Assembly (NCBI GenBank): GCA_965197715.1
Contig: OZ240224.1
Coordinates: 878,695 to 910,694, forward strand
Length of the DNA: 32,000 bases
Reading direction: 5' to 3'
DNA from: Dehalococcoidia bacterium
Lineage (GTDB): Bacteria; Chloroflexota; Dehalococcoidia; Lucifugimonadales; UBA1127
Within the stretch, counting starts at the first letter, position 1. Each line of letters opens with the position of its first letter. Shown one piece after another: positions 213 through 16,154 of this stretch. The position numbers and the translations under genes are program-made. The notes beneath the pieces are model-generated. The model was not told the DNA's origin. It worked only from the letters and a program-made list of their open reading frames with translations, and did no database searches.

Positions 213-237
213 GAAACCACCCCTACCCTATGCCCGT

Positions 238-323: not shown

Positions 324-454
324 CGCCTGCGCATCCCGCAAGGACGATGCTTCGTGGGCCCGGGCAATGGGGCCGAGGTAGAGTTGTGCCCGGCTATACT
401 AAACTGACGCGGAGAGAACGGCTGCCACACGGCGCTGAGGAATAACGAAGCAAG

Positions 455-715: not shown

Positions 716-799
716 GGCCCCATCGCATTGAGATCGGCCCCGGCGAGGTGTCAACGGGGGTAGGATGCGCTCCGCACGTACGGGCAGCCCCCGGGACCT

Positions 800-1687
800 T
801 CACGTCGGCGGGACGGAGAGTGTCACAACGTCCAGCCAGCCTCTTGCTTCGTACGGCAGCCCGGCGGCCTCGCGCGGCGTCAAACCATCCAGGGCTGGAT
901 GCGGGCGAACGAGATTGTAGTGGACTCGCCAGCAGAATGCGGCCTGACTGATGGCTGCCTCCGAACGGACGATCCCAAGGATTCTCCGGCGCTCCCTGAG
1001 CATGCCTTGGACGCTCTTCAGCTGGATGCCCTCGATGGACCCCGCTGCCGATTGCCCCTGGGATGGGCGTATATGCCTGAGGTCCGGGCCGAAGACCTTG
1101 TCGACCGCCTCCGTCAGGGACCGGGAAGCATCGCTTACGAGGGTGAGCGGCTGCTCCGGTGCCAGGGGCGAGGCCTTGCGCAGAAAGGTCTCGGCATCGC
1201 CCTGGGTCCGGCTGCGCGAGACGTGCGTGGCGATGAGGTAGAGGCTCTTGGCGTCGATGGCGTCCCATACCCACAGGGTCCGCGGGCTTCTGGCGGAAGC
1301 GCGGTCGCGCGGAGCCCTGACGGGTGTGCGCAGGAGCAGCCAGACGGGCCCCCCGGCAGCGGGCGCGCCCATGGCCCTGTCCGCTTTGGCCGCGTATTTC
1401 ACAGCCCACGCGAAGATGCGGGAATGGGAAGGTCGGGCCCCAAAGACCATCTGAAGGTGCCGTTCAATGCTCCGAAGAGGCCAACCCTGGTAGAAGTGAT
1501 TGAGCGCTGAGGCGATGACCGGCGCCGAGTACCGCATGCCCACGGGGGCGTCGGTCGGCAGGAAGGTGCGGCCGCAGGCTTTGCAGAGCAGCCGGGGACG
1601 GCCGGCAGACGTGCGTCCGTAGCGGACCACGCTCAGGGAGCCGCATAGCTTACATGAGACCGATTCCATTGCCATCGTCTTGCTCAC
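800..1687 (-). mobile_element. DDE-superfamily transposase with N-terminal zinc ribbon (IS6/IS240-like by eye; family uncertain)
   Basis: N-terminal CKLCG...CKACG. The block LWVWDAIDAKSLYLIATHVSRSRTQGDAETFL resembles the W-x-Y-L-Y-R-A-[IV]-D core of IS6-type transposases. Candidate catalytic residues are D in PRDRAS, D in LVSDAS and E in SIEGIQ. The C-terminal HYNLVRPHPALDGLTPREA is an integrase-core signature. The start could be GTG 1687, ATG 1675 or ATG 1669. I saw no terminal inverted repeats. Confidence 0.7.
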
Positions 1688-3037
1688 TCACGCATCGACC
1701 GGGGGAGCGAAGCTGGGACCGGGCCGGGTATGGCGGCTGGTAGTGAGGCGCCAACACAGAGGTGCCAGGAATGCGACGGTTTCGATTTGACAAGATTTCG
1801 CCCCTAGTGTACCAAATGCGTGACAGCCCTCGGCGGCAGCGTCGAAAGGCTGGAATACGCAGCTTTGTACAGGCGGTTCCGGGCAGCGCGGACGCTTTGG
1901 GGCGCCCCGGGGTCCGCACGGGAGGACGGGCATGGCGAAGAATGGGTTCAAGGTGATCGACAGCGACCTGCACATCATGGAGCCGGTGGACCTGTGGGAG
2001 CGCTACATTGACGGGCCGTTCCAGGCCGCGGCGCCCCGGGGGACGGCGGCCAGCGCCTCCGACCTGAGCCTGCTCCACCCCGACGGCCGGATGTGGGGGC
2101 GCGACCCCATCCGGGCCCAGCCCACGGGTCGGCCGCAGGGGCGGAGCGCGGCGGTGAACGAGGAGCGCTTTGGGGAACACTTCCGGCGGGGGTACAGCAA
2201 CCAGGTGCAGCTGGAGGCCATGGACACGGAGGGGATAGACGTGGGGGTGATCTACCCCAGCCGGGGGCTGCACGCGCTGGGAGAGCCGGAGATGGACCCC
2301 CCGCTGGCGGCGGCGATGGCGCGGGCGTACAACAACTGGCTCTACGACTTCTGCCAGGCGGACCCGGGGCGGCTGCTGGGTGCGGGGATGGTGTCGGTGT
2401 TCGACATCGAGGACGCGGTGGCGGAGAGCCGGCGCGCGGTGGAGGAGCTGGGGTTCCGGGCGATCTTCCTGCGTCCCAACATCGTTGGGGGGCGCAACTG
2501 GTACGATGCCTACTACGAGCCGCTGTGGTCGACGCTGGAGGAGCTGGAGGTGCCGCTGGGGTTCCACGAGGCCATCTTCACCGCGCTGCCGCAGGTGGGG
2601 TCCATCTTTGGGGCGAACTCTATGCTGCGCCACACCTTCTGCCACCCGGTGGAGCAGATGCAGGCGGTGGCGGCCTTCGCGGCGGGGGGCGTCTTCGCGC
2701 GGCATCCGGGGCTGCGGGTGGCATTCCTGGAGGGGAACTGCAGCTGGCTGCCCTTCCTGCTGTGGCGGCTGGACGAGCACTGGGAGCAGAGCGGGGACGT
2801 GTGGGCGCCGGAGGTGAGCATGGCGCCCAGCGAGTACTTCAAGCGGCAGGGGTACGCGTCGGTGGAGGGGGACGAGGAGCCGGTGAAGTACGTGATCCAG
2901 GACATGGGCAACGAGAACCTGGTCTTCTCCACCGACTACCCCCACGGGGACTCCAAGTACCCCGTGGCGGTGGAGCGCTTCCTGGACCTGCCCATCACCG
3001 ACGACGACAAGCGCAAGATCCTCTGGGATAACTGCGC
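1672..3037. repeat. Left arm of a 1366-bp inverted repeat (promoter, leader and codons 1-369 of an amidohydrolase gene)
   Basis: This is the reverse complement of 14789..16154. Position p pairs with 17826-p at the outer end, the TTGACA box, the ATG and the inner end, so I saw no indels. There are 6 nt differences in the 260-nt upstream part and 6 aa differences in 369 shared codons. Confidence 0.9.
1787..1815 (+). promoter_or_regulatory. Candidate sigma70-type promoter of the arm gene (TTGACA-17 nt-TACCAA)
   Basis: Perfect -35 TTGACA at 1787..1792, a 17-nt spacer, then a weak -10 TACCAA at 1810..1815. This leaves a leader of ~115-120 nt before ATG 1932. The element is duplicated exactly in the right arm. 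Confidence 0.4.
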
Positions 3038-3074
3038 AGACCTCTATGGGGCCGCAGTGCCCGCTCTTGGCTGA
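1932..3074 (+). CDS. Amidohydrolase-2 family metal-dependent hydrolase/decarboxylase (copy A)
   Basis: 380 aa. GGGAGGA RBS 5 nt upstream. N-terminal VIDSDLHIMEP and C-terminal FSTDYPHGD are typical PF04909-type motifs. It is near-identical to 14752..15894 except for the last 11 aa. Confidence 0.9.
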   Translation: MAKNGFKVIDSDLHIMEPVDLWERYIDGPFQAAAPRGTAASASDLSLLHPDGRMWGRDPIRAQPTGRPQGRSAAVNEERFGEHFRRGYSNQVQLEAMDTEGIDVGVIYPSRGLHALGEPEMDPPLAAAMARAYNNWLYDFCQADPGRLLGAGMVSVFDIEDAVAESRRAVEELGFRAIFLRPNIVGGRNWYDAYYEPLWSTLEELEVPLGFHEAIFTALPQVGSIFGANSMLRHTFCHPVEQMQAVAAFAAGGVFARHPGLRVAFLEGNCSWLPFLLWRLDEHWEQSGDVWAPEVSMAPSEYFKRQGYASVEGDEEPVKYVIQDMGNENLVFSTDYPHGDSKYPVAVERFLDLPITDDDKRKILWDNCADLYGAAVPALG

Positions 3075-3119
3075 AGCGGATTGTCCTGAAGGTCGGGCTG
3101 GAATGCTGAGGAGGGTGTG

Positions 3120-4469
3120 ATGCCGTATCGCGCGAAGGGTCGGAAGAAGGACTTTCCCGTGTTCGACTGCGACAGCCACGTGTTTGAACCGCCGGACGTG
3201 TGGGACCAGTACATTCCAAGCAGTCAACGAGAGTTCGCCAAGACGCACCTATACGTCAACACGGACCGGGGCATGAGGGTCCTCAATGGAAGAGTCAGCT
3301 TCCAGGACCCCCGTTCCAACGGCTTTGCCGCCGAGGTGTGGAACCCCACGCTCACCAAGGAGGAGATCGGGGCGATCTCTCCGGCCTCCGATGAGTGGGA
3401 TGAGAAGATAGGTCGGAACGCCATCACCCGAGACCCCTACGCCCGCCTCAAGGACATGGACGCCTCGGGCATTGATCAGGTCATGGTGTTCCCGTCTTCA
3501 CCGATGATCACGCTGCCGCTGGTCAAGAATATCGAGGCAGCCCGGCTGTGCGCAAGGGCCTACAACGACTGGGCGAGCGACTACTGCTCGGTGAGTCCCA
3601 GGCGGCTCTTCCCGTGCGCCATCCTGCCGACTCGAAACGTGGACTTCGCCATCGAGGAGCTCCGGCGCGTGGCGAAGCTGGGGTTCAAGGCGGCCTTTGT
3701 CCGCCCCATCCTCGTCGATGACAAGTACCCCACCTTCCCCGAGTACGATCCGCTGTGGCGCGAGTTTGAGGACCTGGGCATGGCCCTGGGGATGCACCAC
3801 TTCATCGCGCCGGGCGCGATGACCCAAGGGCTGGAACGCCGCGTCGCTGAAATCCGCGGGGTTGGTTTCGGCGCAGGCTTCGCACCGGAGCCGCAACTGT
3901 ACTCGCCCGGCCAGTTTGTCCCGAACATCACCTCGGCCATGGGCTCCATCTCTCCCAGCGGTGAGGTTGTGAGCTTCCTCGCCGAGGCGATCAATTGGAC
4001 CACCATCGTCCTCATCACGGGTTGGCTGGAGAAGTTCCCCCGCCTTCGCGTGGCGGTCCTGGAGGCCAACGCCTCCTGGCTGCCCCTCATCCTGGAGAAG
4101 TGCGAGGGCTACCTGAAGCTGAATCGCTATGTCCTGGATGCGGCCAACCCGCCGGTGCAGATAGGTGACCCGTGGGAGGTCTTCAACCGGCAGTGCTACA
4201 TCGCCTTTGAGTCCGACGAGGATACGGTCTTTCGAATGTGGGACCTCTATGAGGACATTGCCCTCTGGTCCTCCGACATGCCTCACCACGACGCCGCGGA
4301 CGTGTGGGAGGCCATCGACGGTATGGCCAAGCGGGGGGTCCCCGAATCGGCGCAGGCCAAGATGCTCGGCGGGAATGCGCGAAGGCTCTACGGCATCGAG
4401 CCCGAGCTCTTCGTCACCGAGGCGCCCGACGAGTACCAGCCAACGAAGCTTCCGCGGTTTGTGAGCTAG
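3120..4469 (+). CDS. Amidohydrolase-2 family protein (long form, ~449 aa)
   Basis: FDCDSHVFEPPDVW at the N-terminus and SSDMPHHD near the C-terminus. GGAGG lies 5 nt upstream of ATG 3120; the ORF-track start, GTG 3117, sits too close to the RBS. Confidence 0.85.
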   Translation: MPYRAKGRKKDFPVFDCDSHVFEPPDVWDQYIPSSQREFAKTHLYVNTDRGMRVLNGRVSFQDPRSNGFAAEVWNPTLTKEEIGAISPASDEWDEKIGRNAITRDPYARLKDMDASGIDQVMVFPSSPMITLPLVKNIEAARLCARAYNDWASDYCSVSPRRLFPCAILPTRNVDFAIEELRRVAKLGFKAAFVRPILVDDKYPTFPEYDPLWREFEDLGMALGMHHFIAPGAMTQGLERRVAEIRGVGFGAGFAPEPQLYSPGQFVPNITSAMGSISPSGEVVSFLAEAINWTTIVLITGWLEKFPRLRVAVLEANASWLPLILEKCEGYLKLNRYVLDAANPPVQIGDPWEVFNRQCYIAFESDEDTVFRMWDLYEDIALWSSDMPHHDAADVWEAIDGMAKRGVPESAQAKMLGGNARRLYGIEPELFVTEAPDEYQPTKLPRFVS

Positions 4470-4652
4470 CGGGTTTATCGCGCGCCACTGGCGGGCACGA
4501 GCGTTCCGTCAGTCGCGCGGCGCCCATGGGTCAGAGGAGGGTCCGGCACGGCGATGGAAGGCCGTCCGGATCGTCGGCTGGGGACTCTGGCGGCGGACAT
4601 TTTGGGTTCCGTGGGCAAGCGGGACCCTGGCAGCAATCACTGGGGGTGATGC

Positions 4653-6515
4653 ATGGGTAGAGGACGGACCGGTGAAAGCAGCGGAGTAGGACTGCGGAGG
4701 GCAACACACCGCGCCAGGCTCTTGGGGGCAGGCCTCTTCGCCTTGCTCCTGTTGGGCGTGGCGTGCGCCGGTGACGCCGCGCCCCAGGTGGCCCAGGAAC
4801 CCCAGCAGCCGGCGGCGGCGGCGGCGCCCGCACCGGCGGCGGCAGCCCCGGATCCTGCCGCCGCCACCGGAGTGGCAGGATCCGCGCCAACACGCCCGGC
4901 CGCCATGCCCGCGCCGTCGGTCCCGGCAGCAACCGGTGAGCCCAAGTACGGCGGCACGCTGATCCTGGGCCATAGACAGGACCCCCCCTTGGGCTTCGAT
5001 ACCATGCGCTACTCCGGCGTCAGCACTATCCAGGTAGCGGCGAGCATCTGGGGCAACGGGCACCTGGTCAAGCCATGCCGGGAGAATATCTTCAACGTGT
5101 GCCCTGGACTGGCCGAGAGCTGGGAGCACAACGACGACTTCACGCAGTGGACCTTCAAGGTCCGGGACAACGTCCTGTGGCATGACGGCACGCGCATGGT
5201 CCCGGAGGACATCAAGTTCTGGCTGGAGCTGTTCGTGTACGGGGTGGAGGTTGGGGACAAGAAGCGCGGTCCGTCGACAGCCCGACTGGACTTCGAGCCC
5301 CTGGAGAGCGTGGAGGTGCTGCCCGGCAACCAGCTCCGCATCACCCTGAGCTCCCCAAGGCCCCAGTACCTCCAGGTGGTCTCGAGGCCGCACTACGTCG
5401 TCGCTCACCCCCGCCACCTCATGGAGTCGCGTATACGGCAGGGCGATGTGGGAATCGCTCCCCTGGACGTCGACCTCGTGGGCATGGGGCCCTTCGTGTT
5501 CGACAGGTTCGACAAGGGGAGCAGGGTCTCCGTCCGGCGCTACGACAACTACTGGGAGACGGACGAAGCCGGGAGACAGCTCCCATACATGGACGGCATC
5601 GACTTTGCGATGGTGGGGAGCCCGTCGGCCATGGACGCCGCGGTCCGTGTCGGCCGGCTGGACGGCGGCGCCCGGGGACCTGGATACCACCTGTCCTCGG
5701 AGCGGCAGCAGAGCTACAACAAGGACTTCGGCGATGACGTCTGGTACGCAGAGGTCCGGTTCTTCAACTGGTGCTGCTGGTTCAATACGCTGAAGGAAGG
5801 CCCGCTGCAGGACGTGCGTGTCCGGAAGGCTCTCTCTCTCTGGGTGGACAAGCGCGCCGCCATTCCCTCCGTCCTAGGCGGCTTTGGCTACCTCCGCACG
5901 CTCCTTGACCCCGACAACCCCTATACGAGCCCCGACTTCCTCGAGTGGCCCAGCTACAATAAGGACACGCGGGCAGCCGATCAGGCCGAGGCAAAGCGCC
6001 TCCTGGCAGAGGCGGGTTACCCGGATGGGTTCGAGCTCTACGAGAACTGCTGGCGAGTGGCCCAGTCGGCGTGCGAGTTCCTGGCAGGGCAGTTCACCAC
6101 GCTGGGCGTCAACTTCAATCTCAAGCTGGTGGACACCGGCACCCGCCAGGTAACGGCCGCAACCCTCGACAACGACATCGACAGCGCTTCCGGCTGGCAG
6201 GGAGGGTTCGCCATTCCCGAGATGATCATTCAGAACCTCGCACGGTACAGCGAGAACAAGCGGGCAGGCCCCAAGCACGAGGACCCGAGGATCGGCGAGT
6301 ATTTCGAAGAGCTGCACACCTCCGTCGACCTGCAGAAGCGGATCGAGGTCTTCCGGGAGCTGGAGCGCTACGTGATCCTGGAGCAGGTCTACAACATACC
6401 GCTGCTGGGAGAGCTGGCCGTGACGCCCTACCGGTCCTACGTGAAGGGCTACCTGCCTCCGGCCGGCGACGTGAACAACAACTATAACCACGCCAGGACG
6501 TGGCTGGACAAATAG
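4653..6515 (+). CDS. Family-5 (peptide/opine/nickel type) ABC solute-binding lipoprotein, orphan
   Basis: Signal peptide with a lipobox-like LLLGVAC, a Pro/Ala-rich linker, then SBP_bac_5-type motifs (PGLAESWEH...FTQWTFKVRDNVLWHDG). It is a paralog of 10564..12315. No permease or ATPase gene is present in the window. Confidence 0.9.
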   Translation: MGRGRTGESSGVGLRRATHRARLLGAGLFALLLLGVACAGDAAPQVAQEPQQPAAAAAPAPAAAAPDPAAATGVAGSAPTRPAAMPAPSVPAATGEPKYGGTLILGHRQDPPLGFDTMRYSGVSTIQVAASIWGNGHLVKPCRENIFNVCPGLAESWEHNDDFTQWTFKVRDNVLWHDGTRMVPEDIKFWLELFVYGVEVGDKKRGPSTARLDFEPLESVEVLPGNQLRITLSSPRPQYLQVVSRPHYVVAHPRHLMESRIRQGDVGIAPLDVDLVGMGPFVFDRFDKGSRVSVRRYDNYWETDEAGRQLPYMDGIDFAMVGSPSAMDAAVRVGRLDGGARGPGYHLSSERQQSYNKDFGDDVWYAEVRFFNWCCWFNTLKEGPLQDVRVRKALSLWVDKRAAIPSVLGGFGYLRTLLDPDNPYTSPDFLEWPSYNKDTRAADQAEAKRLLAEAGYPDGFELYENCWRVAQSACEFLAGQFTTLGVNFNLKLVDTGTRQVTAATLDNDIDSASGWQGGFAIPEMIIQNLARYSENKRAGPKHEDPRIGEYFEELHTSVDLQKRIEVFRELERYVILEQVYNIPLLGELAVTPYRSYVKGYLPPAGDVNNNYNHARTWLDK

Positions 6516-6641
6516 CCACGTCGAGCCTCACGCCGACAGCCGGGGGCCGCGCACTGGGGGCGAGCGCGACCTCGGGCTATGGCCACCCCGGAGCGTGTCC
6601 GCCACCGGGCGAGTCCCGTGGCGTGCCAAGGAGATGGCCCC

Positions 6642-6977
6642 GTGTCCGAAGAGAACAAGGAGATCGTGCGCCGCTTCTACGAGGAAGTGGAGAACCAGGG
6701 AAACCTGGGCCTCATCGACGAGCTGATCGATCCCGGCTTCCGGGACGTGTTCAACTCCAGCGCCCTGGGCCCGGCACAGGGGCAGGAGGGCATCAGACGG
6801 CTCGTCACCCACCTGCGCCAGCGCCCCGGCTTTCACATCGCCATCGAGGACCTGATCGCCGAGGGGGATAAGGTGGTCATGTGCATGCCCAGGGGGGCCG
6901 AGGTGCTGCGCCTGCGGAACGGCAAGATTGTGGAACGCTGGGTGTACATCGACCGCTCGCCCCCGCCTTCCGGCTAG
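6642..6977 (+). CDS. SnoaL-like / NTF2-fold ester-cyclase family protein (short, 111 aa)
   Basis: NKEIVRRFYEEVENQGNLGLIDELIDPGF is the classic SnoaL-like N-terminus. The start is moved to GTG 6642, which follows AAGGAG (6629..6634) by 7 nt. The ORF-track start at 6579 adds an Arg/Pro-rich leader and has no RBS. Confidence 0.65.
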   Translation: MSEENKEIVRRFYEEVENQGNLGLIDELIDPGFRDVFNSSALGPAQGQEGIRRLVTHLRQRPGFHIAIEDLIAEGDKVVMCMPRGAEVLRLRNGKIVERWVYIDRSPPPSG

Positions 6978-7039
6978 ACCGGCCGTCCGTCGCGCGGCAT
7001 TCGCTCGGGAGGGTGCGCCACCCGTCACCGGAGGAACGC

Positions 7040-7963
7040 ATGGATACCGTTGGATTTATCGGCCTCGGGAACATCGGCTCGGCCGTTGCCGCGAACATCG
7101 GAAGCGCGGGCTACCCCCTGGTGGTCCACGACATTCGAGAGGCGGCGGCGAAACCGCTGCTGGAGGCTGGCGCGCGGCTTGCAGCCTCTCCCGCAGAGGT
7201 GGCCAGCCGCAGCGACGTGGTCCTTACGTCCCTTCCAGGCCCTATTGAAGTCGAGCAGGTGGCCATTGGGCCTCAGGGAATCCAGGAAGGAATCGGGCGG
7301 GGCGCCGTGTACGTGGACCTCTCCAGCAGCCGCCCAGCCCTGATTCACCGGGTGGCCTCGGCGCTTCAGCAGCGGGGCGCGCAGGTCATCGACGCCCCGC
7401 TCATCGTCGGCAAGCGCGGCATCGCCAACCGGAGCGTCCAGGTCCTGGCAAGCGGCGACCCGGAAGCCTACAACCGCGTCAAGCCGGTCCTTGACGCCCT
7501 TTCGGATACCGTCGTGTACACGGGAAACCTGGGGACCGGGAGCATCATCAAGCTGGCCCACAACCTGGTCCGCCGCGGCGTGGGCCTGGCCGTAGGGGAA
7601 GGGATCGTCCTGGGCGCCAAGGCGGGGGTGGACCCGCAGGTCCTGTGGGACTGCATGCACTGGGGGCTGGACGTCCAGATGGCGGGACTCCGCACGTCCT
7701 TTCCGCCCCAGACGGAAGCCGCTTCCGACCGTGATGTGCCCGCGAGCTTCACGCTGGCCCTCTCCAGGAAGGACGTGGGCCTGGCGACGGAGCTGGGCCG
7801 CGAGTTGAACGTGCCAATGCCGATCGCGAACCTGGTCGAGCAGGTGATGATCGAGGGCATGAACCGCGGCTGGGGGCACAGGAGCACCGCCGCCCTGTTT
7901 GAGATCCAGGAGCAGGCTGCTCACGTGACCGCGCGGGCGCCCCGGCAGGAGAAGCAGACCTGA
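7040..7963 (+). CDS. NAD(P)-dependent beta-hydroxyacid dehydrogenase (3-hydroxyisobutyrate / 6-phosphogluconate dehydrogenase-like)
   Basis: MDTVGFIGLGNIGSAVAANI Rossmann motif and GTGSIIKLAHNL with the catalytic Lys. GGAGGA RBS upstream of ATG 7040. The ORF-track start at 6881 is an N-terminal over-extension. Confidence 0.85.
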   Translation: MDTVGFIGLGNIGSAVAANIGSAGYPLVVHDIREAAAKPLLEAGARLAASPAEVASRSDVVLTSLPGPIEVEQVAIGPQGIQEGIGRGAVYVDLSSSRPALIHRVASALQQRGAQVIDAPLIVGKRGIANRSVQVLASGDPEAYNRVKPVLDALSDTVVYTGNLGTGSIIKLAHNLVRRGVGLAVGEGIVLGAKAGVDPQVLWDCMHWGLDVQMAGLRTSFPPQTEAASDRDVPASFTLALSRKDVGLATELGRELNVPMPIANLVEQVMIEGMNRGWGHRSTAALFEIQEQAAHVTARAPRQEKQT

Positions 7964-8018
7964 CGGACGCCAGGCGGGCCCCGTTCGGAGGGGCGCGTGA
8001 CTAAAGAAGGGGGGAGCG

Positions 8019-8954
8019 ATGAGGGTCCTCATAGCCGGAAGCTCGGGATTCGTGGGCCGGTACACCGTGCAGGCCCTGGCCCAAATGGGGGAGGAGCCGG
8101 TGGCCTTTGACGTCCAGCGCCCGCCGGAGGGGTGGCTGCCTGATGGCGTGCCCTTCGTTCAAGGGTCTATGGCCAACCTGGAAGACGTCGTGTCCGTCAT
8201 GGTCGACCAGAAGGTGCAGCGCGTCGTCGTCCTGGGCTACATCATGGCGGCGCTCACGGCGCCCCAGTACCGGGACTACATTGGCGCGGTCAAGACCAAC
8301 GTGCTCGGTGTCACCAACGTGTTCGAGGCCGCGCGGCTGACGGGCGTGGACCGGGTGGTGTTCGCCAGCTCCGCCGGCGTCTACGGGCCGCAGAGCACCT
8401 ACGGGGAGCGGCCGGTCACCGAGGACGACCCCGTGGCGCCCGCCGGCCTCTACGGCACGATGAAGTACGCCAATGAGGCCCTGGCCCAGCAGTACTCGCG
8501 CGTCTACGACCTGCAGGTCGTCCGCGTGCGCCCTCCCGGGATTCTTGGAGCCGGCAACACCATGTGGCCTTCGCGTGTGATCACGCCGCCGGCCCTGGGC
8601 AGGGCGGCCATGGTCAACTTTCCCTCCCAGCGCCATCAGAACGCCATACCCGTCGAGGACCTGGCGGCGCTCTACTCGCGTCTGGCTCTGGCCCCGTCGC
8701 TGCGGCATGACCTCTACTTGGCCCCCGGCCATGCCTTCGTGAGCGCGGAGGTGGCGGCGATCATCCGCTCCTTTATCCCCGATGCTCAGATCGAGTTCAA
8801 CGACTCCGTCACCCCTCTGGAGGGCGGCTTCCCCTACCTCTACGACGACAGCCGCCTGAACGAGGAGTTCGATGTGAAGCTGCGTCCATTGGAGGCGGCC
8901 GTGCGCTCCCACATCGACCACGAGCGGGCTGCCGCCGGGCTCGAACCCCTGTAG
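8019..8954 (+). CDS. NAD-dependent epimerase/dehydratase (extended SDR)
   Basis: MRVLIAGSSGFVGRY glycine-rich motif and the YGTMK (YxxxK) active site. 311 aa. Confidence 0.85.
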   Translation: MRVLIAGSSGFVGRYTVQALAQMGEEPVAFDVQRPPEGWLPDGVPFVQGSMANLEDVVSVMVDQKVQRVVVLGYIMAALTAPQYRDYIGAVKTNVLGVTNVFEAARLTGVDRVVFASSAGVYGPQSTYGERPVTEDDPVAPAGLYGTMKYANEALAQQYSRVYDLQVVRVRPPGILGAGNTMWPSRVITPPALGRAAMVNFPSQRHQNAIPVEDLAALYSRLALAPSLRHDLYLAPGHAFVSAEVAAIIRSFIPDAQIEFNDSVTPLEGGFPYLYDDSRLNEEFDVKLRPLEAAVRSHIDHERAAAGLEPL

Positions 8955-9025
8955 CTGCGGGGCGCCGGCCCGCGCACCGGTCATCCCTCGCCGAAAGTCT
9001 GTTCACGCGCCAGGAGGAGGGTCCG

Positions 9026-9430
9026 ATGAGTCTGACCTTGGACCAAGCGTTGACCGCGTTGGAAGCGGCCCGGGCAAAAGCCCTCTCCCATGGTATGCGG
9101 GCCTCCTTTGTCGTCCTTGGCCAGGGGGGAGATGTCGTGGCGATGCACAAGATGGACGGAGCGCGCCTGACGGCGATGGAGTTTGCTCAGAAGAAGGCGT
9201 TCACCGCGCTGAACTTCGCCCGGCCCACCCATGAGACCGTCGATCGGTTCCAGCCCATCGAGATGCAGATCCTCCTAACCTTGGCGGACCCTCGCCTGAT
9301 GTTCTACAAGGGCGGCGTGCCCGTCATGGCCGGCGGGCAGGTCATAGGCGCCATCGGTTGCAGCGGAGGAAGCGGCGATCAGGACTTCGACTGCAGCGAG
9401 GCCGGCGCGCAGGCGGCCGCCGGAGGGTAA
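9026..9430 (+). CDS. GlcG/HbpS-like (DUF336) heme-binding family protein
   Basis: 134 aa. AGGAGGAGGG RBS. AQKKAFTALNF and GGVPV...GAIGCSGGSGDQD are typical of the family. Confidence 0.8.
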   Translation: MSLTLDQALTALEAARAKALSHGMRASFVVLGQGGDVVAMHKMDGARLTAMEFAQKKAFTALNFARPTHETVDRFQPIEMQILLTLADPRLMFYKGGVPVMAGGQVIGAIGCSGGSGDQDFDCSEAGAQAAAGG

Positions 9431-9484
9431 GGTGCTCTCCCCTGCGGCAGGCCGGATTCCCGAGTGCCAGTGGCTGGCTGGCCT

Positions 9485-9500
9485 GGACCCCGTCGGGTCC
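9485..9500. terminator. GC hairpin at the convergence point of the two operons (GGACCC-CGTC-GGGTCC)
   Basis: Perfect 6-bp stem lying between the stop of 9026..9430 and the stop of 9506..10441. There is no U-tract, so it is not a canonical intrinsic terminator. Confidence 0.3.
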
Positions 9501-9505
9501 GGGAC

Positions 9506-10441
9506 CTACGATCCAGGCGCCCCCAGCTCCCGAACGAAGTCGGCGATCCCCTCGTCGATGGTGAACTGGGGCTGGTAGCCGAGCTCCGCGCGGGCCAGGG
9601 ATATGTCCAGGGGCTGCCCCGTAGCGGGCGCCCCGCTCCCGGGCTGGACAGCCGCCGCGTCGGCACCGGGCACAGCCGCGCGTATGGCGGCGGCGATGTC
9701 GGCGGCGGTCGTGAGCAGTCCCGATCCGATGTTGAAGACGCGGCTCACAAGCGGCGCCTCCGCCGCGAGCGCAACGCCCTGCACGACGTCCTTCACATAC
9801 ACACAGTCCCGCGCCCTGAAGACCGCCGGATCGACGCGCGCCGGATGTCCCTGGAGCGCCGAGGCCAGGATGTCGTGAAGCACCTCCCCGGCGGGGTCGC
9901 CGCCGGCGTAGTGGCCGCGGCCGTAGATCTGGGCAAAGCGCAGTACCGCGAGCTCGAACCCGTAGTGGACGGCAAGGGCGCTCAGGATGCGCTCGCACGC
10001 GACCTTGCTGGCCGTGTACAGCTGGTCCCCGCCCACGGCGAAGTCCTCCCGTATGGGGACGCTCGGTGGCGGCTCTCGCAGGTACACCGCCTGCGTGCCG
10101 GCGAAGATCAAGCGCCGTGCTCCGCTGGTCCTGACCGCCTCCGCAACGGCGGTGGTGCCGCCAACGTTGATGTCGAGGGTCGTGTAGGGGCGGGCGGCCG
10201 CTCTGGCGCCGATGAGGAAGGCGGAGTGAAACACGACCTCGATGCTGTTCGCCCGCATGGTCTCGATCAACGCGGGCAGGTCGCGGACGTCCCCGGCCGC
10301 GACCGCGGCGTCCGGCGCGACGCTCCCGATGTACGCCCGGTTGGGCGCCACGTCGTAGAGGACGACCCGGTGGCCCTTGCTCACGGCGTCGCGGGCGAAG
10401 TAGCACCCGACCAGGCCCGCGCCGATGACGAGGATGTTCAT
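9506..10441 (-). CDS. NAD-dependent epimerase/dehydratase (extended SDR)
   Basis: MNILVIGAGLVGCYF N-terminus and the YTASK (YxxxK) motif. 311 aa. The RBS is weak. Confidence 0.8.
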   Translation of the reverse strand: MNILVIGAGLVGCYFARDAVSKGHRVVLYDVAPNRAYIGSVAPDAAVAAGDVRDLPALIETMRANSIEVVFHSAFLIGARAAARPYTTLDINVGGTTAVAEAVRTSGARRLIFAGTQAVYLREPPPSVPIREDFAVGGDQLYTASKVACERILSALAVHYGFELAVLRFAQIYGRGHYAGGDPAGEVLHDILASALQGHPARVDPAVFRARDCVYVKDVVQGVALAAEAPLVSRVFNIGSGLLTTAADIAAAIRAAVPGADAAAVQPGSGAPATGQPLDISLARAELGYQPQFTIDEGIADFVRELGAPGS

Positions 10442-10563
10442 ACCTGGATGCCCTTGAGGAGAATCACGGCGTGTTCACGCTCACAGTCCCGCCAACGCGC
10501 AGGTGGCCTCCCGGCCTTGACGGCGTGTGACGCGCCCAGCGCAACCGCCGCCAGATTCGGAGG

Positions 10564-12315
10564 TTACTTGTCCAGCCATACCGTGGCGAAGTCGAGGAGG
10601 CTCTGCGTGTTCTCTGCCGGGACCGGTAGTCCCTTCACGTACGTCCGGTAGGGAGTCAGGCTGACCCTTGACGAGATAGGGGCGAGGTACACGTGCTCCA
10701 GTATCATGTAGTCCTCGAGCTCCCGCCAGATCCGAACGCGCTCCTCGAAGCTGGTCGATCCCTTGATCCGATCCATGAACTCCGGGACCCTGGGGTCCTC
10801 GTGCTTTACGACTGCGCCCGGGCTGATGCTATACCTGGTCAGCGCCGACTCCTGACCCTCTGGAATGCGGCTCGGGTAGGCGGGGGCTTGAAAGAGGTCG
10901 TCGCTCGTAGCAAGGTTGGCCGCACTCCAGGCAGCGGGGTCAAGGATTCTGAAGTCGAGGTCGATGCCCAGGTCCTTCAGCTGTGCCTGGAAGAACTGGC
11001 AGCGGTCCGAGTATGAAGATTGGCATGGCGTGGTCAGTCTCACTCCACCTGCATACCCCGCCTCGGCGAGCAGCCGCTTGGCTTCGGCGCGGTCCCGCTC
11101 CCTCGTGTTTGGATCGAAACCCGGCCAGGTCTTGTACTCCGGGCTAGTGTACGGGTTGTCGGGGCTGAAGATAGTGGCTACGTAGCCCAAGCTCCCCTGG
11201 TAGGCGTCAATCGAGGCCTGCCGGTCTACCCAAAGCGATATCGCCCTACGCACGCGAACATCCTGGATGGGGCCTTCCTTCAGGAGATTGAAGTTCAGAC
11301 CCAAGGATAGGCCCCCGCCCCCCTTGATCTCGGCGAACCAAATCTCATCGCCCAGATCTCGCTCGTACGCAGTCTTCCGCTCCTGCGACAGGACGAAGCC
11401 CCCCACACGGGCGCCGCCGTCCAGCCTCCCCGCTCTGATGGCGGCGTCCATGGCCTGGGCGTCGGCCATCACGGCGAAGTCGATGCCGTCCACGTAGGGA
11501 AGCGTACGCCCGTCGTCGTCGCGCTCCCAGTAGCCGTCGAACCTGCGTTCCTGGACGCGGCTGCCCTTCTCATAGAGCAGCATCTTGAAGGGCCCCGTCC
11601 CCACCCAGCCGACGTCCTGGGGTGTCACGTCCACGAGCCCCTCTTGGATCTTCGGTTGGGCCAGGTGTCTCGGAATGGCGAAGTTCCAGAACGGGCTGGA
11701 GATCAGGTTCAGGTACACGGGTGACGGCTCGCTCAGGGTGATCCTCAGTTGGCCGGCCGGCAAGGCGTCAACCTGCTGGATGTCTCCAAACTCTTTCCTC
11801 CACCACGCCGGCAGGCGCTGCTTCTCTCCGACCTTGACTCCGAACGATATCAGCTCCAGCCAGAACTTGACGTCCTCCGCGGTGAAGGGCGTGCCGTCAT
11901 GCCATGAGACGCCATCCCGTATTTTGAACGTCCACTGCGTAAAGTCCTGGTTGTGCTCCCAGCTCTCCGCGAGGCCGGGGCAGATCTCGTAGATGTCCTC
12001 TCGGCACTCCCGTACCAGGTTCCCGTACCCCCACAATGGCGCTCCAGCGGTGTTCAGGTCGTACCGCTGGGTGACCCTCGTGATGTCCCAAGCGCCTGGC
12101 GGGTCGCGGCGCAGGGGCAGCGTGAGTATGCCTCCCAGCTTCGGACCTTCGGGCATTGCAACTGGGGCCGCCGGCTCGGGCGTCGGCTGCTGTGCGGGCG
12201 CAGGCTGCGTTGGGGCCTGAGGTTCAGCCGCCGGTGTGCCGCCCGAGCAAGCCAGCACCGCAAGAAGGGCTGCCAACCAGGCAGCAACCAGGGCCGTCTT
12301 CCCTCGCGTCAACAT
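10564..12315 (-). CDS. Family-5 ABC solute-binding lipoprotein, orphan (paralog of 4653..6515)
   Basis: The start is moved to ATG 12315, preceded by GGGAGGTGG. Signal peptide with LLAVLAC lipobox, a Pro/Ala/Gln-rich linker, and PGLAESWEHNQDFTQWTFKIRDGVSWHDG. Both paralogs end in WLDK. Confidence 0.9.
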   Translation of the reverse strand: MLTRGKTALVAAWLAALLAVLACSGGTPAAEPQAPTQPAPAQQPTPEPAAPVAMPEGPKLGGILTLPLRRDPPGAWDITRVTQRYDLNTAGAPLWGYGNLVRECREDIYEICPGLAESWEHNQDFTQWTFKIRDGVSWHDGTPFTAEDVKFWLELISFGVKVGEKQRLPAWWRKEFGDIQQVDALPAGQLRITLSEPSPVYLNLISSPFWNFAIPRHLAQPKIQEGLVDVTPQDVGWVGTGPFKMLLYEKGSRVQERRFDGYWERDDDGRTLPYVDGIDFAVMADAQAMDAAIRAGRLDGGARVGGFVLSQERKTAYERDLGDEIWFAEIKGGGGLSLGLNFNLLKEGPIQDVRVRRAISLWVDRQASIDAYQGSLGYVATIFSPDNPYTSPEYKTWPGFDPNTRERDRAEAKRLLAEAGYAGGVRLTTPCQSSYSDRCQFFQAQLKDLGIDLDFRILDPAAWSAANLATSDDLFQAPAYPSRIPEGQESALTRYSISPGAVVKHEDPRVPEFMDRIKGSTSFEERVRIWRELEDYMILEHVYLAPISSRVSLTPYRTYVKGLPVPAENTQSLLDFATVWLDK

Positions 12316-12464
12316 CAATCCACCTCCCGATCCCTTGCATTCCAGGTTGACAGTGCCTACCCAACACAATCGCGAATTGAGTTAGCCGGGGCGCCTGCCG
12401 ACTTGCCGCCTGGTCTCGAATGCGAAGCCAATGCGCCGAACGACGGAAGCTGCTCGCCGTCCGC

Positions 12465-13439
12465 CTATGGCACGGCGCCGGACCGCACCCGGTCGACGTA
12501 CTCGTCGAGCATCGTCTCCAGCGTGTACTGCGGCGCGAACCCGAGCTCCGTGCGCAGCCGCTCGGTGCTCGTGAGCGGCATGGCGACGGCGGGTTCCGCG
12601 CTCATCGTAATCTGGGCATTGGGGAACAGGTCCCGCATCTTGCTCGTAAAGTCGCCCACGGGCCGCCGCTCGGCAGCCACGTTGAAGACGCGGTGCGGCG
12701 GGTCCTCCACCGCCAGCGCGCAGCAGAAGGCCTCGGCCAGGTCCGCGCTGTACAGCCAGTCCACAACCTGCTCGTTCGGCGGCATCTGAACGGGCCGATC
12801 GTTCATCAATGCCCCCGTCACCGCCACGAGGCCGCCGGCGGTGAGGTCGGCCACCAGCATCATCCCCTGACCGTGGGAACGCAGCCGGCTCAGCGACCTC
12901 CCGATGCCGAATACCGCCGTCGGTCTGAGGCCGATGGGATCGAGGCCGTGCCGCCGGTGGTAGAAGTCTGCCACCGTCTCGTTCAGGAGCTTGCAGGCGC
13001 CGTAGAGAGACGCCCCCGCGGGCAGCATGTCCTCGTTGATCTCATCGTCTATGAGGTTCTTGCGGACCGAGTAAACGCCAATGGAGCTGGCGTAGGTGAT
13101 ACGCTTCACGCCATGGACGCGGGATGCTTCGAAGACGTTGGTCGTCCCGACACCGTTGAGCTGAATGGAGCGCGGCGGATTGGCGTCCACCGCGGGCCCC
13201 TGAAGCGCCGCGAGGTGGACCACCTTCTCCACGCCGTTCTTGCGCATGGCCTCCAGCAGCTCCAGGGGCTGCAGCACGTCGCCCTGCACGACGACCACGC
13301 TGTCTGCGATATCCTTCACAAGACTGTCGTCCGCCAGCGAGTCGAAGAGCACCACCCCGCTCTCGCCCTTCTTCTGGACCAGGTGGCGCGCGATTGCCGC
13401 CCCCAGGAATCCGGTCCCGCCCGTGATCATAATCGCCAT
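12465..13439 (-). CDS. NAD-dependent epimerase/dehydratase (extended SDR)
   Basis: MAIMITGGTGFLGAAIARHL N-terminus, YGACK (YxxxK) motif, GGAGGTTGG RBS. Confidence 0.85.
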   Translation of the reverse strand: MAIMITGGTGFLGAAIARHLVQKKGESGVVLFDSLADDSLVKDIADSVVVVQGDVLQPLELLEAMRKNGVEKVVHLAALQGPAVDANPPRSIQLNGVGTTNVFEASRVHGVKRITYASSIGVYSVRKNLIDDEINEDMLPAGASLYGACKLLNETVADFYHRRHGLDPIGLRPTAVFGIGRSLSRLRSHGQGMMLVADLTAGGLVAVTGALMNDRPVQMPPNEQVVDWLYSADLAEAFCCALAVEDPPHRVFNVAAERRPVGDFTSKMRDLFPNAQITMSAEPAVAMPLTSTERLRTELGFAPQYTLETMLDEYVDRVRSGAVP

Positions 13440-13540
13440 GAGTCCAACCTCCGATAGTGTGCGTCAGGCAGAATGGGTCCCAACGCGGCCCTCGGCGCCG
13501 CCGGTGAGCGGCGGGTGCCGTGAGCGCGTCAACGCCGTGC

Positions 13541-14587
13541 TCACAGGGCGTAGAGGGCGCGGGCGTTGTCGTCGAGGATCTTGTCGACGACGCGGGAGTC
13601 GACGGGGTTGGTCTTGCGCAGGGTGGAGAGGGCCTCGAGCTCTGCGGTGGTGTCGGCGTGGCCGTAGTCGGTGCCCATGACGAGGTTGTCCTCGCCGGCG
13701 TACTGGACGACGTAGGGGATGTCGTCGTCGGTCTGGCAGGCGACGAAGAGGCGGTTGTCGCGGAGGATGTCGCCGGTGACGCGGCCCTGGAGGTGGCGGC
13801 CCTGGCGGTGGGCGGTGCGGCGGACGATGTCATGCAGGACGTGGGGGACCCACTGGGCGCTGGCCTCCACGAAGCCGAAGCGGAGCTTGGGGAAGCGGGT
13901 GGGGACCTCGTGGAGGAGGAGGGTGTGGAAGGAGCTCATGACGGGGAGCTTGGAGACGAGGAAGCCGCCGCCGTCGGAGCCGAAGCCGAGGAAGTTGGCG
14001 ACGGCGGGGTTGGCGCTGCCGGCGTGGATGGCGATGGCGAGGTCGAGGCTGGACGCGACGTCATAGAGGGGGAAGAAGTAGGGGTCGGAGAGCTGACGGT
14101 CGCCCTCGAAGCCGCGCATGAAGATGCCGCAGGCGCCGTTCTCCTTGGCGAACTCCAGTTCGGCGGGGGCCTTGGAGAGGTCCATGAGGGGCGGGATGGC
14201 GACCCAGCGGAGGCGGTCGTGGCCCTGCTTCCAGATGTCGGCCATCCAGCGGTTGTAGCTCTTGCCAAGGGCGAAGTCGGCGGCAGGGTCGTCGGCGATC
14301 TTGCGGGTGTAGATGGTGGGGAAGAGGACCTGGATGTCGACGCCTAACTCGTCCATGTGGGCGAGGCGCGCGCTGACGTCGAGCATCTCGCGGGTGACCT
14401 CGGTGGTGTCGCCGCCGATGTTGGTGCAGCGTTGCTTGAGCTTGCCGTCGATGGCCCAGAAGAGGCGGTTGCCGTCCCCGTCCCTGGGGGCGAGGGTAAC
14501 AGGCTTGTAGCGGGCCTCGGACTCGTCCATGTAGTCCCAGGTCTGGTCGGTCTCGATGACGTGGGCATCGGAGTCGATGGTGGCCAT
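13541..14587 (-). CDS. Amidohydrolase-2 family protein
   Basis: MATIDSDAHVIETDQTWDY at the N-terminus and MGTDYGHAD at the C-terminus. GGGAGGAA RBS. 348 aa. Confidence 0.85.
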   Translation of the reverse strand: MATIDSDAHVIETDQTWDYMDESEARYKPVTLAPRDGDGNRLFWAIDGKLKQRCTNIGGDTTEVTREMLDVSARLAHMDELGVDIQVLFPTIYTRKIADDPAADFALGKSYNRWMADIWKQGHDRLRWVAIPPLMDLSKAPAELEFAKENGACGIFMRGFEGDRQLSDPYFFPLYDVASSLDLAIAIHAGSANPAVANFLGFGSDGGGFLVSKLPVMSSFHTLLLHEVPTRFPKLRFGFVEASAQWVPHVLHDIVRRTAHRQGRHLQGRVTGDILRDNRLFVACQTDDDIPYVVQYAGEDNLVMGTDYGHADTTAELEALSTLRKTNPVDSRVVDKILDDNARALYAL

Positions 14588-14751
14588 GGGTGTTCCTCCC
14601 GCTTCATCCGGTTCTCTGCAGATAGGCCTTCCCAGGCCTGCGTCGCACCCAGAAGGGCTCAGCGAGCCCCCGAAACTGACCCGTGCCGGCTGCCAGGCGC
14701 CCAGAACAGCGCTGCGCCGGCAGCCCTGGTGAGATGCTTTGTCGCTGTCGC

Positions 14752-15894
14752 CTAGGCCGGCGCCGCCTCGACTATGCCGTACATCGCGGCGCAGTTGTCC
14801 CAGAGGATCTTGCGCTTGTCATCGTCGGTGATGGGCAGGTCCAGGAAGCGCTCCACCGCCACGGGGTACTTGGAGTCCCCGTGGGGGTAGTCCGTGGAGA
14901 AGACCAGGTTCTCGTTGCCCATGTCCTGGATCACGTACTTCACCGGCTCCTCGTCCCCCTCCACCGACGCGTACCCCTGCCGCTTGAAGTACTCGCTGGG
15001 CGCCATGCTCACCTCCGGCGCCCACACGTCCCCGCTCTGCTCCCAGTGCTCGTCCAGCCGCCACAGCAGGAAGGGCAGCCAGCTGCAGTTCCCCTCCAGG
15101 AACGCCACCCGCAGCCCCGGATGCCGCGCGAAGACGCCCCCCGCCGCGAAGGCCGCCACCGCCTGCATCTGCTCCACCGGGTGGCAGAAGGTGTGGCGCA
15201 GCATGAAGTTCCCCCCAAAGATGGACCCCACCTGGGGCAGCGCGGTGAAGATGGCCTCGTGGAACCCCAGCGGCACCCCCAACTCCTCCAGCGTCGACCA
15301 CAGGGGCTCGTAGTAGGCGTCGTACCAGTTGCGCCCCCCAACGATGTTGGGGCGCAGGAAGATCGCCCGAAACCCCAGCTCCTCCACCGCGCGCCGGCTC
15401 TCCGCCACCGCGTCCTCGATGTCGAACACCGACACCATCCCCGCACCCAGCAGCCGCCCCGGGTCCGCCTGGCAGAAGTCGTAGAGCCAGTTGTTGTACG
15501 CCCGCGCCACCGCCGCCGCCAGCGGCGGCTCCATCTCCGGCTCTCCCAGCGCGTGCAGCCCCCGGCTGGGGTAGATCACCCCCACGTCTATCCCCTCCGT
15601 GTCCATCGCCTCCAACTGCACCTGGTTGCTGTACCCCCGCCGGAAGTGTTCCCCAAAGCGCTCCTCGTTCACCGCCGCGCTCCGCCCCTGCGGCCGACCC
15701 GTGGGCTGCGCCCGGATGGGGTCGCGCCCCCACATCCGGCCGTCGGGGTGCAGCAGGTTCAGGTCCGAGGCGCTGGCCGCCGTCCCCCGCGGCGCCGCGG
15801 CCTGGAACGGCCCATCGATGTAGCGCTCCCACAGGTCCACCGGCTCCATGATGTGCAGGTCGCTGTCGATCACCTTGAACCCATTCTTCGCCAT
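14752..15894 (-). CDS. Amidohydrolase-2 family protein (copy A', duplicate of 1932..3074)
   Basis: The start is moved to the ATG at 15894, which has the same RBS and context as copy A. 380 aa. It has 6 substitutions in residues 1-369 and an unrelated 11-aa tail (AMYGIVEAAPA versus DLYGAAVPALG). Confidence 0.9.
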   Translation of the reverse strand: MAKNGFKVIDSDLHIMEPVDLWERYIDGPFQAAAPRGTAASASDLNLLHPDGRMWGRDPIRAQPTGRPQGRSAAVNEERFGEHFRRGYSNQVQLEAMDTEGIDVGVIYPSRGLHALGEPEMEPPLAAAVARAYNNWLYDFCQADPGRLLGAGMVSVFDIEDAVAESRRAVEELGFRAIFLRPNIVGGRNWYDAYYEPLWSTLEELGVPLGFHEAIFTALPQVGSIFGGNFMLRHTFCHPVEQMQAVAAFAAGGVFARHPGLRVAFLEGNCSWLPFLLWRLDEHWEQSGDVWAPEVSMAPSEYFKRQGYASVEGDEEPVKYVIQDMGNENLVFSTDYPHGDSKYPVAVERFLDLPITDDDKRKILWDNCAAMYGIVEAAPA

Positions 15895-16154
15895 GCCCGT
15901 CCTCCCGTGCGGACCCCGGGGCGCCCCAAAGCGTCCGCGCTGCCCGGAACCGCCTGTACAAAGCTGCGTATTCCAGCCTTTCGACGCCGACGCCAAAGGC
16001 TGTAACGCATTTGGTACACTAGGGGCGAAATCTTGTCAAATCGAAACCGTCGCATTCCTGGCACCTCCGTGTTGGCGCCTCACTACCAGCCGCCATACCC
16101 GGCCCGGTCCCAGCTTCGCTCCCCCGGTCGATGCGTGAGTGAGCAAGACGGTGG
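14789..16154. repeat. Right arm of the 1366-bp inverted repeat
   Basis: See the left arm. The outer end keeps the first four codons (GTG AGC AAG ACG) of the transposase ORF seen on the left, then diverges. Confidence 0.9.
16011..16039 (-). promoter_or_regulatory. Duplicate of the TTGACA-17-TACCAA candidate promoter
   Basis: On the plus strand, tgtcaa lies at 16034..16039 and ttggta at 16011..16016. This is an exact mirror of 1787..1815. Confidence 0.4.

Follow-up and report, generated by a model that had tools for sequence, protein, structure and literature searches.

The window analysed here is a stretch of 32,000 nucleotides from a Dehalococcoidia bacterium (assembly GCA_965197715.1, contig OZ240224.1, positions 878,695 to 910,694 of the forward strand), and its subject is a long inverted repeat whose arms each contain a promoter-like region and most of a gene of the Amidohydro_2 family, here called A1. 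Each of the two A1 copies points inward and heads a different string of genes. The gene map, drawn up by gene calling based on GC content at third codon positions (GC3) together with Pfam, places the following features at the repeat, in the two strings and in the immediate flanks.

800..1669, minus strand: degenerate IS6-like DDE transposase (Tnp) with an N-terminal zinc ribbon, start codon 3 nt from the outer end of the left arm (profile matches)
1672..3037, plus strand: left arm, 260 nt of upstream DNA and A1L codons 1-369 (repeat finder, base comparison)
1932..3074, plus strand: A1L, 380 aa, Amidohydro_2 fold, motifs of the amidohydrolase-related dinuclear oxygenases (AROs), tail ADLYGAAVPALG (translation comparison, Pfam, PDB match, motif check)
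3120..4469, plus strand: A2L, 449 aa, second gene with Amidohydro_2/ARO motifs, apparently the ancestral partner of A1 (Pfam, motifs, outgroups)
4653..6515, plus strand: SBP_bac_5 solute-binding protein (SBP), left copy (Pfam)
6579..6977, plus strand: SnoaL-like protein (Pfam)
6881..7963, plus strand: NAD_binding_2 dehydrogenase, like HIBADH or tartronate-semialdehyde reductase; start probably near 7040, relatives having 307 aa (Pfam)
8019..8954, plus strand: NAD-dependent epimerase/dehydratase, left copy (Pfam)
9026..9430, plus strand: HbpS-like/GlcG-like protein, last gene of the left string (Pfam)
9506..10441, minus strand: epimerase/dehydratase, last gene of the right string (Pfam)
10564..12369, minus strand: SBP_bac_5 solute-binding protein, right copy, 45% identical to the left (Pfam)
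12465..13439, minus strand: epimerase/dehydratase of the right string (Pfam)
13541..14587, minus strand: A2R, 348 aa, Amidohydro_2, D-x-H motif only (Pfam, motif check)
14752..15894, minus strand: A1R, 380 aa, 96.8% identical to A1L overall, tail AAMYGIVEAAPA (Pfam, translation comparison)
14789..16154, minus strand: right arm, 260 nt of upstream DNA and A1R codons 1-369 (repeat finder, base comparison)
16307..17107, plus strand: alpha/beta hydrolase gene (ABH), the fixed opposite flank, divergent from the right arm (Pfam)

The inverted repeat and the two gene strings

The two arms delimited by the repeat finder, 1672-3037 and 14789-16154, are 1366 nt long each and lie 11751 nt apart, and their position-by-position comparison gives collinear reverse complements with 33 mismatches and 0 indels (97.58% identity); beyond both arm ends the match falls abruptly to noise. 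In each arm, 260 nt of upstream DNA precede codons 1-369 of the 380-aa Amidohydro_2 gene. A preliminary description of this DNA, made by reading the letters, had presented the arms as gapless reverse complements holding about 260 nt of upstream sequence with a TTGACA box plus codons 1-369, and had counted 6 differing residues among 369 ahead of unlike C-terminal tails. The base comparison bears out each of these statements, with TTGACA at 1787-1792 mirrored at 16034-16039, exactly 6 substitutions (S46N, D122E, M129V, E206G, A228G and S230F from A1L to A1R) and tails of 11 residues.

The left string runs in the order A1L, A2L, SBP_bac_5, SnoaL, NAD_binding_2 dehydrogenase, epimerase and HbpS/GlcG-like protein, the right string on the minus strand in the order A1R, A2R, epimerase, SBP_bac_5 and epimerase, and the two meet tail-to-tail at 9431-9505. 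All family names and the gene order given earlier are upheld by Pfam, and the meeting point is confirmed as well. That the interior paralogues are old, as had also been proposed, holds for the SBPs with their 45% identity, but the two operons are not simple paralogues, since A2L and A2R share only 23% identity; for the epimerases the values are 26-33%. Both operons carry a family-5 SBP of about 600 aa, and neither string contains an ABC permease or ATPase gene; the SBPs may thus be orphans or serve a transporter encoded elsewhere.

The repeat is not an assembly artefact, because an independent long-read contig (L104) reproduces the left flank, the left arm and the interior, being 99.8% identical to window positions 1-14469 with an identical Tnp-arm-A2L junction. 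Both arms occur together on at least 13 further independent contigs, and the structure as a whole recurs in at least six samples, on more than 15 contigs that range from 27 kb to 3 Mb and include some labelled as complete chromosomes (OZ252022.1) and a circular one. The concern raised beforehand that the arms could stem from a chimeric assembly is thereby answered in the negative.

Concerted evolution of the arms, inversion of the interior and shifting arm ends

The close homologues of A1 are found in metagenome-assembled genomes (MAGs) of Dehalococcoidia (Chloroflexota), many of them long-read and some reaching complete chromosomes, and the comparison set consists of more than 20 related contigs with over 90% nucleotide identity. 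They fall into three roughly equidistant lineages that are about 94% identical (about 6% apart) in the single-copy flanks: the window lineage (lineage 1: the window, L104, L105 and L101), lineage 2 (L001-L007, L086-L093, L096 and L097) and lineage 3 (L094 and L095). Three features of the window are needed for what follows.

1878..1912, plus strand: 35-nt leader segment that lineage 3 and the two window arms have and that both arms of every lineage-2 genome lack (arm alignment)
3038..14788: interior of 11751 nt, reversed with respect to the fixed flanks in lineage-2 genomes (BLAST, junction pairing)
21306-22715, plus strand: A3, a third Amidohydro_2 paralogue, 33% identical to A1

The outer flanks are common to all lineages, with the transposase-like gene on one side and the alpha/beta hydrolase gene on the other, and the Tnp|arm, ABH|arm and arm|A2R-leader junctions are common to the window lineage, lineage 2 and, where sampled, lineage 3. 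Since junctions and outer flanks are held in common in this way, the duplication evidently predates the split of the three lineages. The arms within one genome are nevertheless closer to each other than arms from different lineages: they diverge by 0-1.3% in 13 lineage-2 genomes and by 2.5% in the window, compared with 4-5% between lineages, and the synonymous divergence (dS) of the arm gene is 0.015-0.085 within genomes vs 0.11-0.14 between them. In four-taxon comparisons, grouping by genome is supported by 32-43 informative sites, grouping by flank by 0-1 and grouping by downstream operon by 0-3. The 13 lineage-2 genomes show 20 polymorphic sites shared between the arm classes and 0 fixed differences, and the state of the 35-nt leader indel is identical in both arms of a genome, which implies that it has been transferred between arms. 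The arms thus evolve in concert, evidently through repeated gene conversion. The preliminary description had left the choice between a recent copy of one head onto the other operon and gene conversion; arms that group by genome and junctions shared across about 6% divergence favour the latter and disfavour the former. Divergence, dS, site patterns, indel and shared polymorphisms taken together exclude, for practical purposes, both a single recent copy and purifying selection alone. Within the window the longest mismatch-free runs between the arms are 209 and 170 nt, and a discrete recent conversion tract is not callable from the window alone, as the mismatch-run lengths are, by a rough estimate, not significantly non-uniform.

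The interior differs in orientation between the lineages. The pairing Tnp-arm-A2L is found in the window, L104 and L105 and the pairing ABH-arm-A2R in the window, L094 and L095, while the opposite pairing (Tnp-arm-A2R and ABH-arm-A2L) is found on 13 lineage-2 contigs from at least six samples, with both arms on single contigs. In BLAST comparisons of lineage 2 with the window the flanks are collinear, the interior is reversed and the switch points lie inside the arms. Orientation thus tracks lineage, the window and lineage 3 having it one way and lineage 2 the other, and the interior has evidently been inverted at least once by recombination between the arms; the earlier suggestion that the arms could serve as a substrate for inversion of 3038..14788 is borne out by the opposite orientation seen between lineages, with breakpoints in the arms. 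Such an inversion leaves each operon's head equivalent, because both arms carry the same upstream region pointing inward.

As to which copy came first, eight outgroup Dehalococcoidia genomes (A1 at 76% amino acid identity) each contain one A1, with an A2L orthologue (68-70% identical) beginning about 40 nt downstream of it. Orthologues of A2R found elsewhere (L098-L100, 74-75% identical) sit in unrelated contexts, and an A1-like head upstream of A2R orthologues was looked for in other genomes and found in none. Because the outgroups have a single A1 with A2L and the A2R orthologues come without an A1-like head, the A2R-linked A1 would be the derived duplicate and A1-A2L the ancestral pair. The proposal to compare synteny in relatives for one head gene or two is thereby answered, the outgroups carrying a single head gene before the A2L orthologue. 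A1 and A2L have Dehalococcoidia outgroup orthologues and one A2R orthologue (P0139) also lies on a contig matching a Binatia MAG (OZ244621.1), which hints that A2R or the right string was acquired horizontally. In the lineage-2 orientation the A2R-linked copy adjoins the transposase remnant, which weakly suggests that the original insertion was associated with an insertion sequence (IS). In that same orientation a homologue of A3 lies about 5.5 kb upstream of A1, as it does in the outgroups (51% identical there), which weakly suggests that the lineage-2 orientation is ancestral.

The ends of the arms have shifted between lineages, most clearly where A1 ends. The last codons of the two window copies lie outside the arms.

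3038..3074, plus strand: L tail, last 11 codons and stop of A1L, outside the arm
14752..14788, minus strand: R tail, last 11 codons and stop of A1R, outside the arm

The window, L101, L104 and L105 combine the L tail with an intact A2L, and L102 and L103 have it on gene bodies of the lineage-2 type; on these grounds it is evidently ancestral for the A2L-linked copy. In the lineage-2 long-read genomes both A1 copies carry the R tail and the repeat runs through the stop codon, the inner arm end lying at a 5-nt AGCGG microhomology and the outer start 39-75 nt further in; the ABH-side arm of the window, for its part, has gained 44 nt (1672-1715) which in lineages 2 and 3 occur on the Tnp side only. 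Ungapped alignment past the inner arm end looks random and residual homology of the tails appears in gapped alignment alone: with a 6-nt indel the L and R tails share GCAGTGCC and match at 29-30 of 55 positions, a weak signal that 12 of 500 shuffles equal. Both tails resemble that of the outgroup orthologues. No donor for the L tail was found in the window or among loci L001-L100. The original duplication would then have covered the whole gene, and the boundary at codon 369 would be an eroded edge or a conversion limit. That homology stops 11 codons before the stop codon, as had been noted, is therefore correct for the window and misleading as the end of the original duplication, given residually homologous tails and lineage-2 arms that cross the stop. 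Codon 230 (S/F) was considered as a selected operon-specific site and dismissed, as L101 and P0134 carry F together with the L tail.

Upstream region, arm gene and neighbourhood

Three elements of the upstream region stand out.

1787..1815, plus strand: promoter-like TTGACA-N17-TACCAA of the left arm, with TATCAA as the second hexamer in lineage 2 (conserved motif)
1822..1838, plus strand: patch containing 5 of the 7 mismatches upstream of A1, within the 5' half of a palindrome that can form a hairpin, CAGCCTTT..AAAGGCTG in the right arm and relatives (arm comparison)
16011..16039, minus strand: promoter-like TTGACA-N17-TACCAA of the right arm (conserved motif)

The hexamer TTGACA (1787-1792, mirrored at 16034-16039) is followed after a 17-nt spacer by TACCAA, and a ribosome-binding site GGGAGG lies 6 nt before the ATG (1932 on the left, 15894 on the right). 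The promoter-like element is preserved in every arm of every lineage, its TTGACA-N17-TA(C/T)CAA core being invariant across lineages 1 and 2 save for one position, and may be regarded as a conserved motif and putative site. Of the promoter named in the preliminary description, the perfect TTGACA stands, but the sigma-70 scan calls no promoter in 1400-3300 and the -10 element matches at 3 of 6 positions. Just downstream of the -10-like hexamer, 5 of the 33 arm mismatches fall into the 17 nt of 1822-1838 (15988-16004 in the right arm); the left arm carries derived states at 3 of these sites and agrees with lineage 3 at the other two, 1831 and 1836. This patch could constitute a small regulatory difference between the two heads. 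The two operons may receive the same regulatory input, but strictly identical regulation of both arms is not assured, because 5 of the 7 upstream mismatches cluster within this palindrome. Folding z-scores of -0.55, -0.93 and +0.59 give no support for a structured regulatory RNA in the leader, and Rfam at E<=1 returned only two tRNAs in the window and no riboswitch or leader family. Scans for intrinsic terminators found none in 1400-3300 or at the convergent junction (9300-9650), where sigma-70 promoters were likewise absent.

The two A1 copies differ at 26 codons, with 27 nucleotide differences of which 21 are synonymous and 6 non-synonymous, giving a dS of 0.085, a non-synonymous divergence (dN) of 0.007 and a dN/dS ratio (omega) of 0.08 by NG86. 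With omega at about 0.08-0.15 across the A1 comparisons, both copies are evidently under purifying selection. Membership in Amidohydro_2 (PF04909) is clear at 119 bits for A1L and 122 bits for A1R vs a gathering threshold of 26.4, so that the family named in the preliminary description stands; the hydrolase chemistry that the name "amidohydrolase" implies is, however, probably wrong for A1, because A1 has the motifs of a dinuclear oxygenase. The ARO signature consists of D-x-H and D-x-P-H-x-D/E, the latter of which is reported missing in characterised hydrolases and decarboxylases (PMC13154177). A1L and A1R alike have the N-terminal motif as D12-L-H14 and the C-terminal one as D335-Y-P-H-G-D340, and A2L has D-x-H as well as D387-M-P-H-H-D392. 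In the motif check A2R showed D-x-H and lacked D-x-P-H-x-D/E, and A3 lacked a complete C-terminal ARO motif. The best PDB match of A1 is PtmU3 (E 6e-49, residues 10-373), followed by DitZ, SfbO-family and AibH chains, and the best match of A2L is likewise PtmU3. A1 and A2L are thus probably O2-dependent hydroxylases rather than hydrolases, sharing the Amidohydro_2 fold and both motifs with the AROs PtmU3, DitZ, SfbO and AibH1H2 (PMC13154177, PMC10401708). A2R differs in being without the C-terminal motif, and a Rieske ferredoxin or reductase gene was found inside neither string; relatives do have Rieske oxygenase genes in their left flank.

AibH1H2 is a heteromer of two amidohydrolase-fold subunits (PMC13154177, PMC10401708), and two adjacent amidohydrolase-fold genes such as A1 and A2L recall the AibH1/AibH2 pairing; that A1 pairs with A2L or A2R as AibH2 does with AibH1 is speculative. 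A further conjecture, to which we give only a small chance, is that A1 is a shared catalytic oxygenase subunit with A2L and A2R as alternative partners, and that the codon-369 boundary is held by selection for partner-specific C-terminal tails rather than reflecting just loss of homology. In keeping with it, every sampled contig with an intact A2L (the window, L101, L104 and L105) has the L tail, as do L102 and L103, which contain the start of A2L only, and in every A2L-deleted genome the L tail has been overwritten by the R tail. Were this conjecture true, gene conversion would maintain one regulatory and catalytic module serving two pathways.

The A2L-type operon is undergoing decay in lineage 2, where a 2.7-kb deletion takes the 3' part of A2L and the whole SBP gene (window positions 3530-6230). 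Many genomes have truncated versions of the left epimerase and GlcG-like genes, and the right-string epimerase has lost about 0.7 kb (window positions 12468-13179). The A1 copy ahead of the decayed operon is intact in most genomes and broken in L086. The gene adjoining the left arm (800-1669) scores far below the cut-offs of all full-length transposase models; its position is kept in all three lineages and it is truncated to 127-250 aa in several relatives, so that it has the appearance of a remnant in decay, possibly marking the junction of the original insertion. An extra IS with helix-turn-helix (HTH) and rve integrase-type transposase genes lies between LigXa-like Rieske and major facilitator superfamily (MFS) genes in the left flank of one contig that is 97.5% identical to the window (L105:3326-4339), showing active IS traffic in the neighbourhood. 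The start of the long open reading frame of A3 is probably wrong, relatives calling 361 aa, and A3 and the arms share 43 nt at 88% (2819-2861 and 22457-22499) that encode the conserved APSEYFKRQ. The window also holds a second, much older duplicated pair consisting of a luciferase-like monooxygenase and a TenA/haem-oxygenase-2-like gene (18993-20709 and 29409-31273), of which the repeat finder links 19475-19595 with 29748-29868 at 71%. The two tRNA genes are the following.

238-320, plus strand: tRNA gene, just left of the transposase remnant (Rfam)
23781-23854, minus strand: tRNA gene (Rfam)

History of the locus and comparison with known systems

The history that we consider highly likely combines an old inverted duplication with repeated gene conversion and at least one inversion. 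In an ancestor of these Dehalococcoidia, a catabolic operon beginning with A1 and A2L would have had its promoter region and complete first gene copied, in inverted orientation, to a place ahead of an unrelated string (A2R, epimerase, SBP, epimerase), beside the present IS6-like transposase remnant. Non-crossover events would then repeatedly have overwritten one arm with the other, so that promoter, leader and about 97% of the gene stay near-identical within a genome, and at least one crossover between the arms would have inverted the 11.75-kb interior, swapping only the outer flanks while each operon kept an equivalent head. The arm ends would represent limits of conversion tracts or eroded edges that differ between lineages, and not the ends of the original duplication. 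The sequence comparisons show the repeat, its shared junctions, the concerted evolution of the arms and the difference in orientation, whereas the direction of the original copy, IS involvement, co-regulation of the operons and a RecA-type dependence of the exchange are inferred.

A single recent duplication of one operon's head onto the other, without later exchange and with the 2.4% divergence dating the event, would fit the window taken by itself, where the mismatches are roughly even, mostly synonymous and accompanied by 0 indels. It is very improbable in the light of the relatives, since the same flank junctions occur in lineages about 6% apart in their flanks, where paralogues without exchange should be at least as divergent as orthologues, and since 32-43 sites group by genome vs 0-3 for the alternatives, with the leader indel and 20 polymorphisms shared between the arms. 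Strong purifying selection on two old copies without recombination would agree with the low omega of 0.08-0.15 and the conserved promoter-like core; selection on the protein, however, cannot hold synonymous sites at the observed dS (0.015-0.085 vs 0.11-0.14) or a non-coding leader, nor can it account for a 35-nt indel common to both arms of a genome or for 20 polymorphisms that the arm classes share, which makes this explanation even less probable. A collapsed or chimeric join as the source of the repeat or of the orientation difference comes to mind because the genomes are metagenome-assembled and the short-read contigs L006, L093, L102 and L103 are untrustworthy across a 1.3-kb repeat; with more than 15 contigs from at least six samples, complete and circular ones included, the match of L104 to the window, 33 arm differences that are enough for an assembler to separate the copies and an orientation that is consistent within lineages, its probability is negligible.

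A programmed switch, in which a site-specific recombinase inverts the interior for phase variation, is suggested by an invertible segment between inverted repeats and by the transposase-like gene abutting one arm. Against this, the arms consist of 1366 nt of coding and upstream DNA rather than short recombinase sites, no invertase, serine recombinase or tyrosine recombinase Pfam domain was found in the 30 window proteins scanned, and the adjoining gene is a degenerate DDE transposase truncated in several relatives. Moreover, each arm contains the promoter-like element in inward orientation, which means that inversion rewires no link between promoter and gene, and the orientation is fixed within lineages rather than mixed; we therefore give such a switch very little credence. 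A composite transposon was rejected because the arms encode an Amidohydro_2/ARO protein and are not IS copies, the transposase remnant lying outside one arm only, and conversion of a pre-existing old paralogous head is not supported, no A1-like gene having been found ahead of the A2R orthologues in other genomes.

Several points nonetheless weigh against the history of duplication, conversion and inversion or against parts of it. Repeat, orientation and exchange are read from assembled contigs, and lineage 3 is represented by one arm. Because orientation correlates with lineage, a single inversion event suffices to explain it; the three lineages are roughly equidistant, so its polarity is not settled by distances, and the case for an ancestral lineage-2 orientation depends on a single neighbouring gene (A3) at 51% identity, too little to decide the matter. 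The short-read contigs L093 and L102 suggest the window-type orientation inside lineage 2, which could reflect mis-joins across the repeat. The R tail on the lineage-2 A2L-linked copy and the 44-nt extension in the window are hard to obtain by simple conversion, as homology on one side is about 5 nt or absent, and these two odd boundary changes imply extra microhomology or end-joining events. The sigma-70 scan, moreover, calls no promoter at the conserved TTGACA element, and transcription from it is putative.

The mechanism itself is textbook, and the case refines rather than changes the understanding of it. Its distinctive trait lies in what is homogenised, namely a regulatory region together with the first gene at the head of two different operons, so that two pathways keep near-identical upstream and leader sequences through many speciation-level substitutions and a gene copy stays intact before an operon that is decaying in lineage 2. 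It provides a clean natural case, replicated across populations of uncultivated soil Dehalococcoidia, of homogenisation and inversion arising from one process. Such repeats mislead orthology calls, the dating of duplications and short-read assemblies, and data from the window only would wrongly suggest a recent copy. For annotation, A1 is probably better named a dinuclear oxygenase than a hydrolase.

The observed behaviour matches the conversion and inversion known from the tufA/tufB genes. In the inverted tuf genes, RecA-dependent recombination homogenises the copies and inverts the interval between them in up to a quarter of events (PMC8262849), tufA/tufB conversion has been linked to chromosomal inversion in Salmonella and others (Abdulkarim and Hughes, 1996; Hughes, 2000; both as cited in PMC8262849), and concerted evolution of tuf is long-lasting (PMC6053082). 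Here as there, two inverted paralogues would be homogenised by homologous recombination with occasional inversion between them, are closer within a genome than orthologues are between genomes, and keep distinct contexts. In contrast, the spacing is 11.75 kb here and hundreds of kb, across the origin, for tuf; the repeat here includes a promoter-like region and a leader; conversion here affects a gene that heads two otherwise different catabolic operons, and not a housekeeping gene; and dependence on recombination genes would, in this uncultivated organism, follow by likeness. The duplicated amoCAB, haoAB and cycAB of Nitrosomonadales (PMC6053082) are likewise metabolic genes that stay near-identical over speciation, with flanking synteny that rules out independent duplication, but whole operons are duplicated there, whereas here only the head is and the downstream genes differ. 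The palindrome arms of the human Y chromosome, for example P6 (PMC3723533), are near-identical inverted repeats maintained by arm-to-arm conversion in multi-kb tracts with rare inversions of the spacer; they are eukaryotic and much larger than the arms described here, and are without an operon or promoter context.

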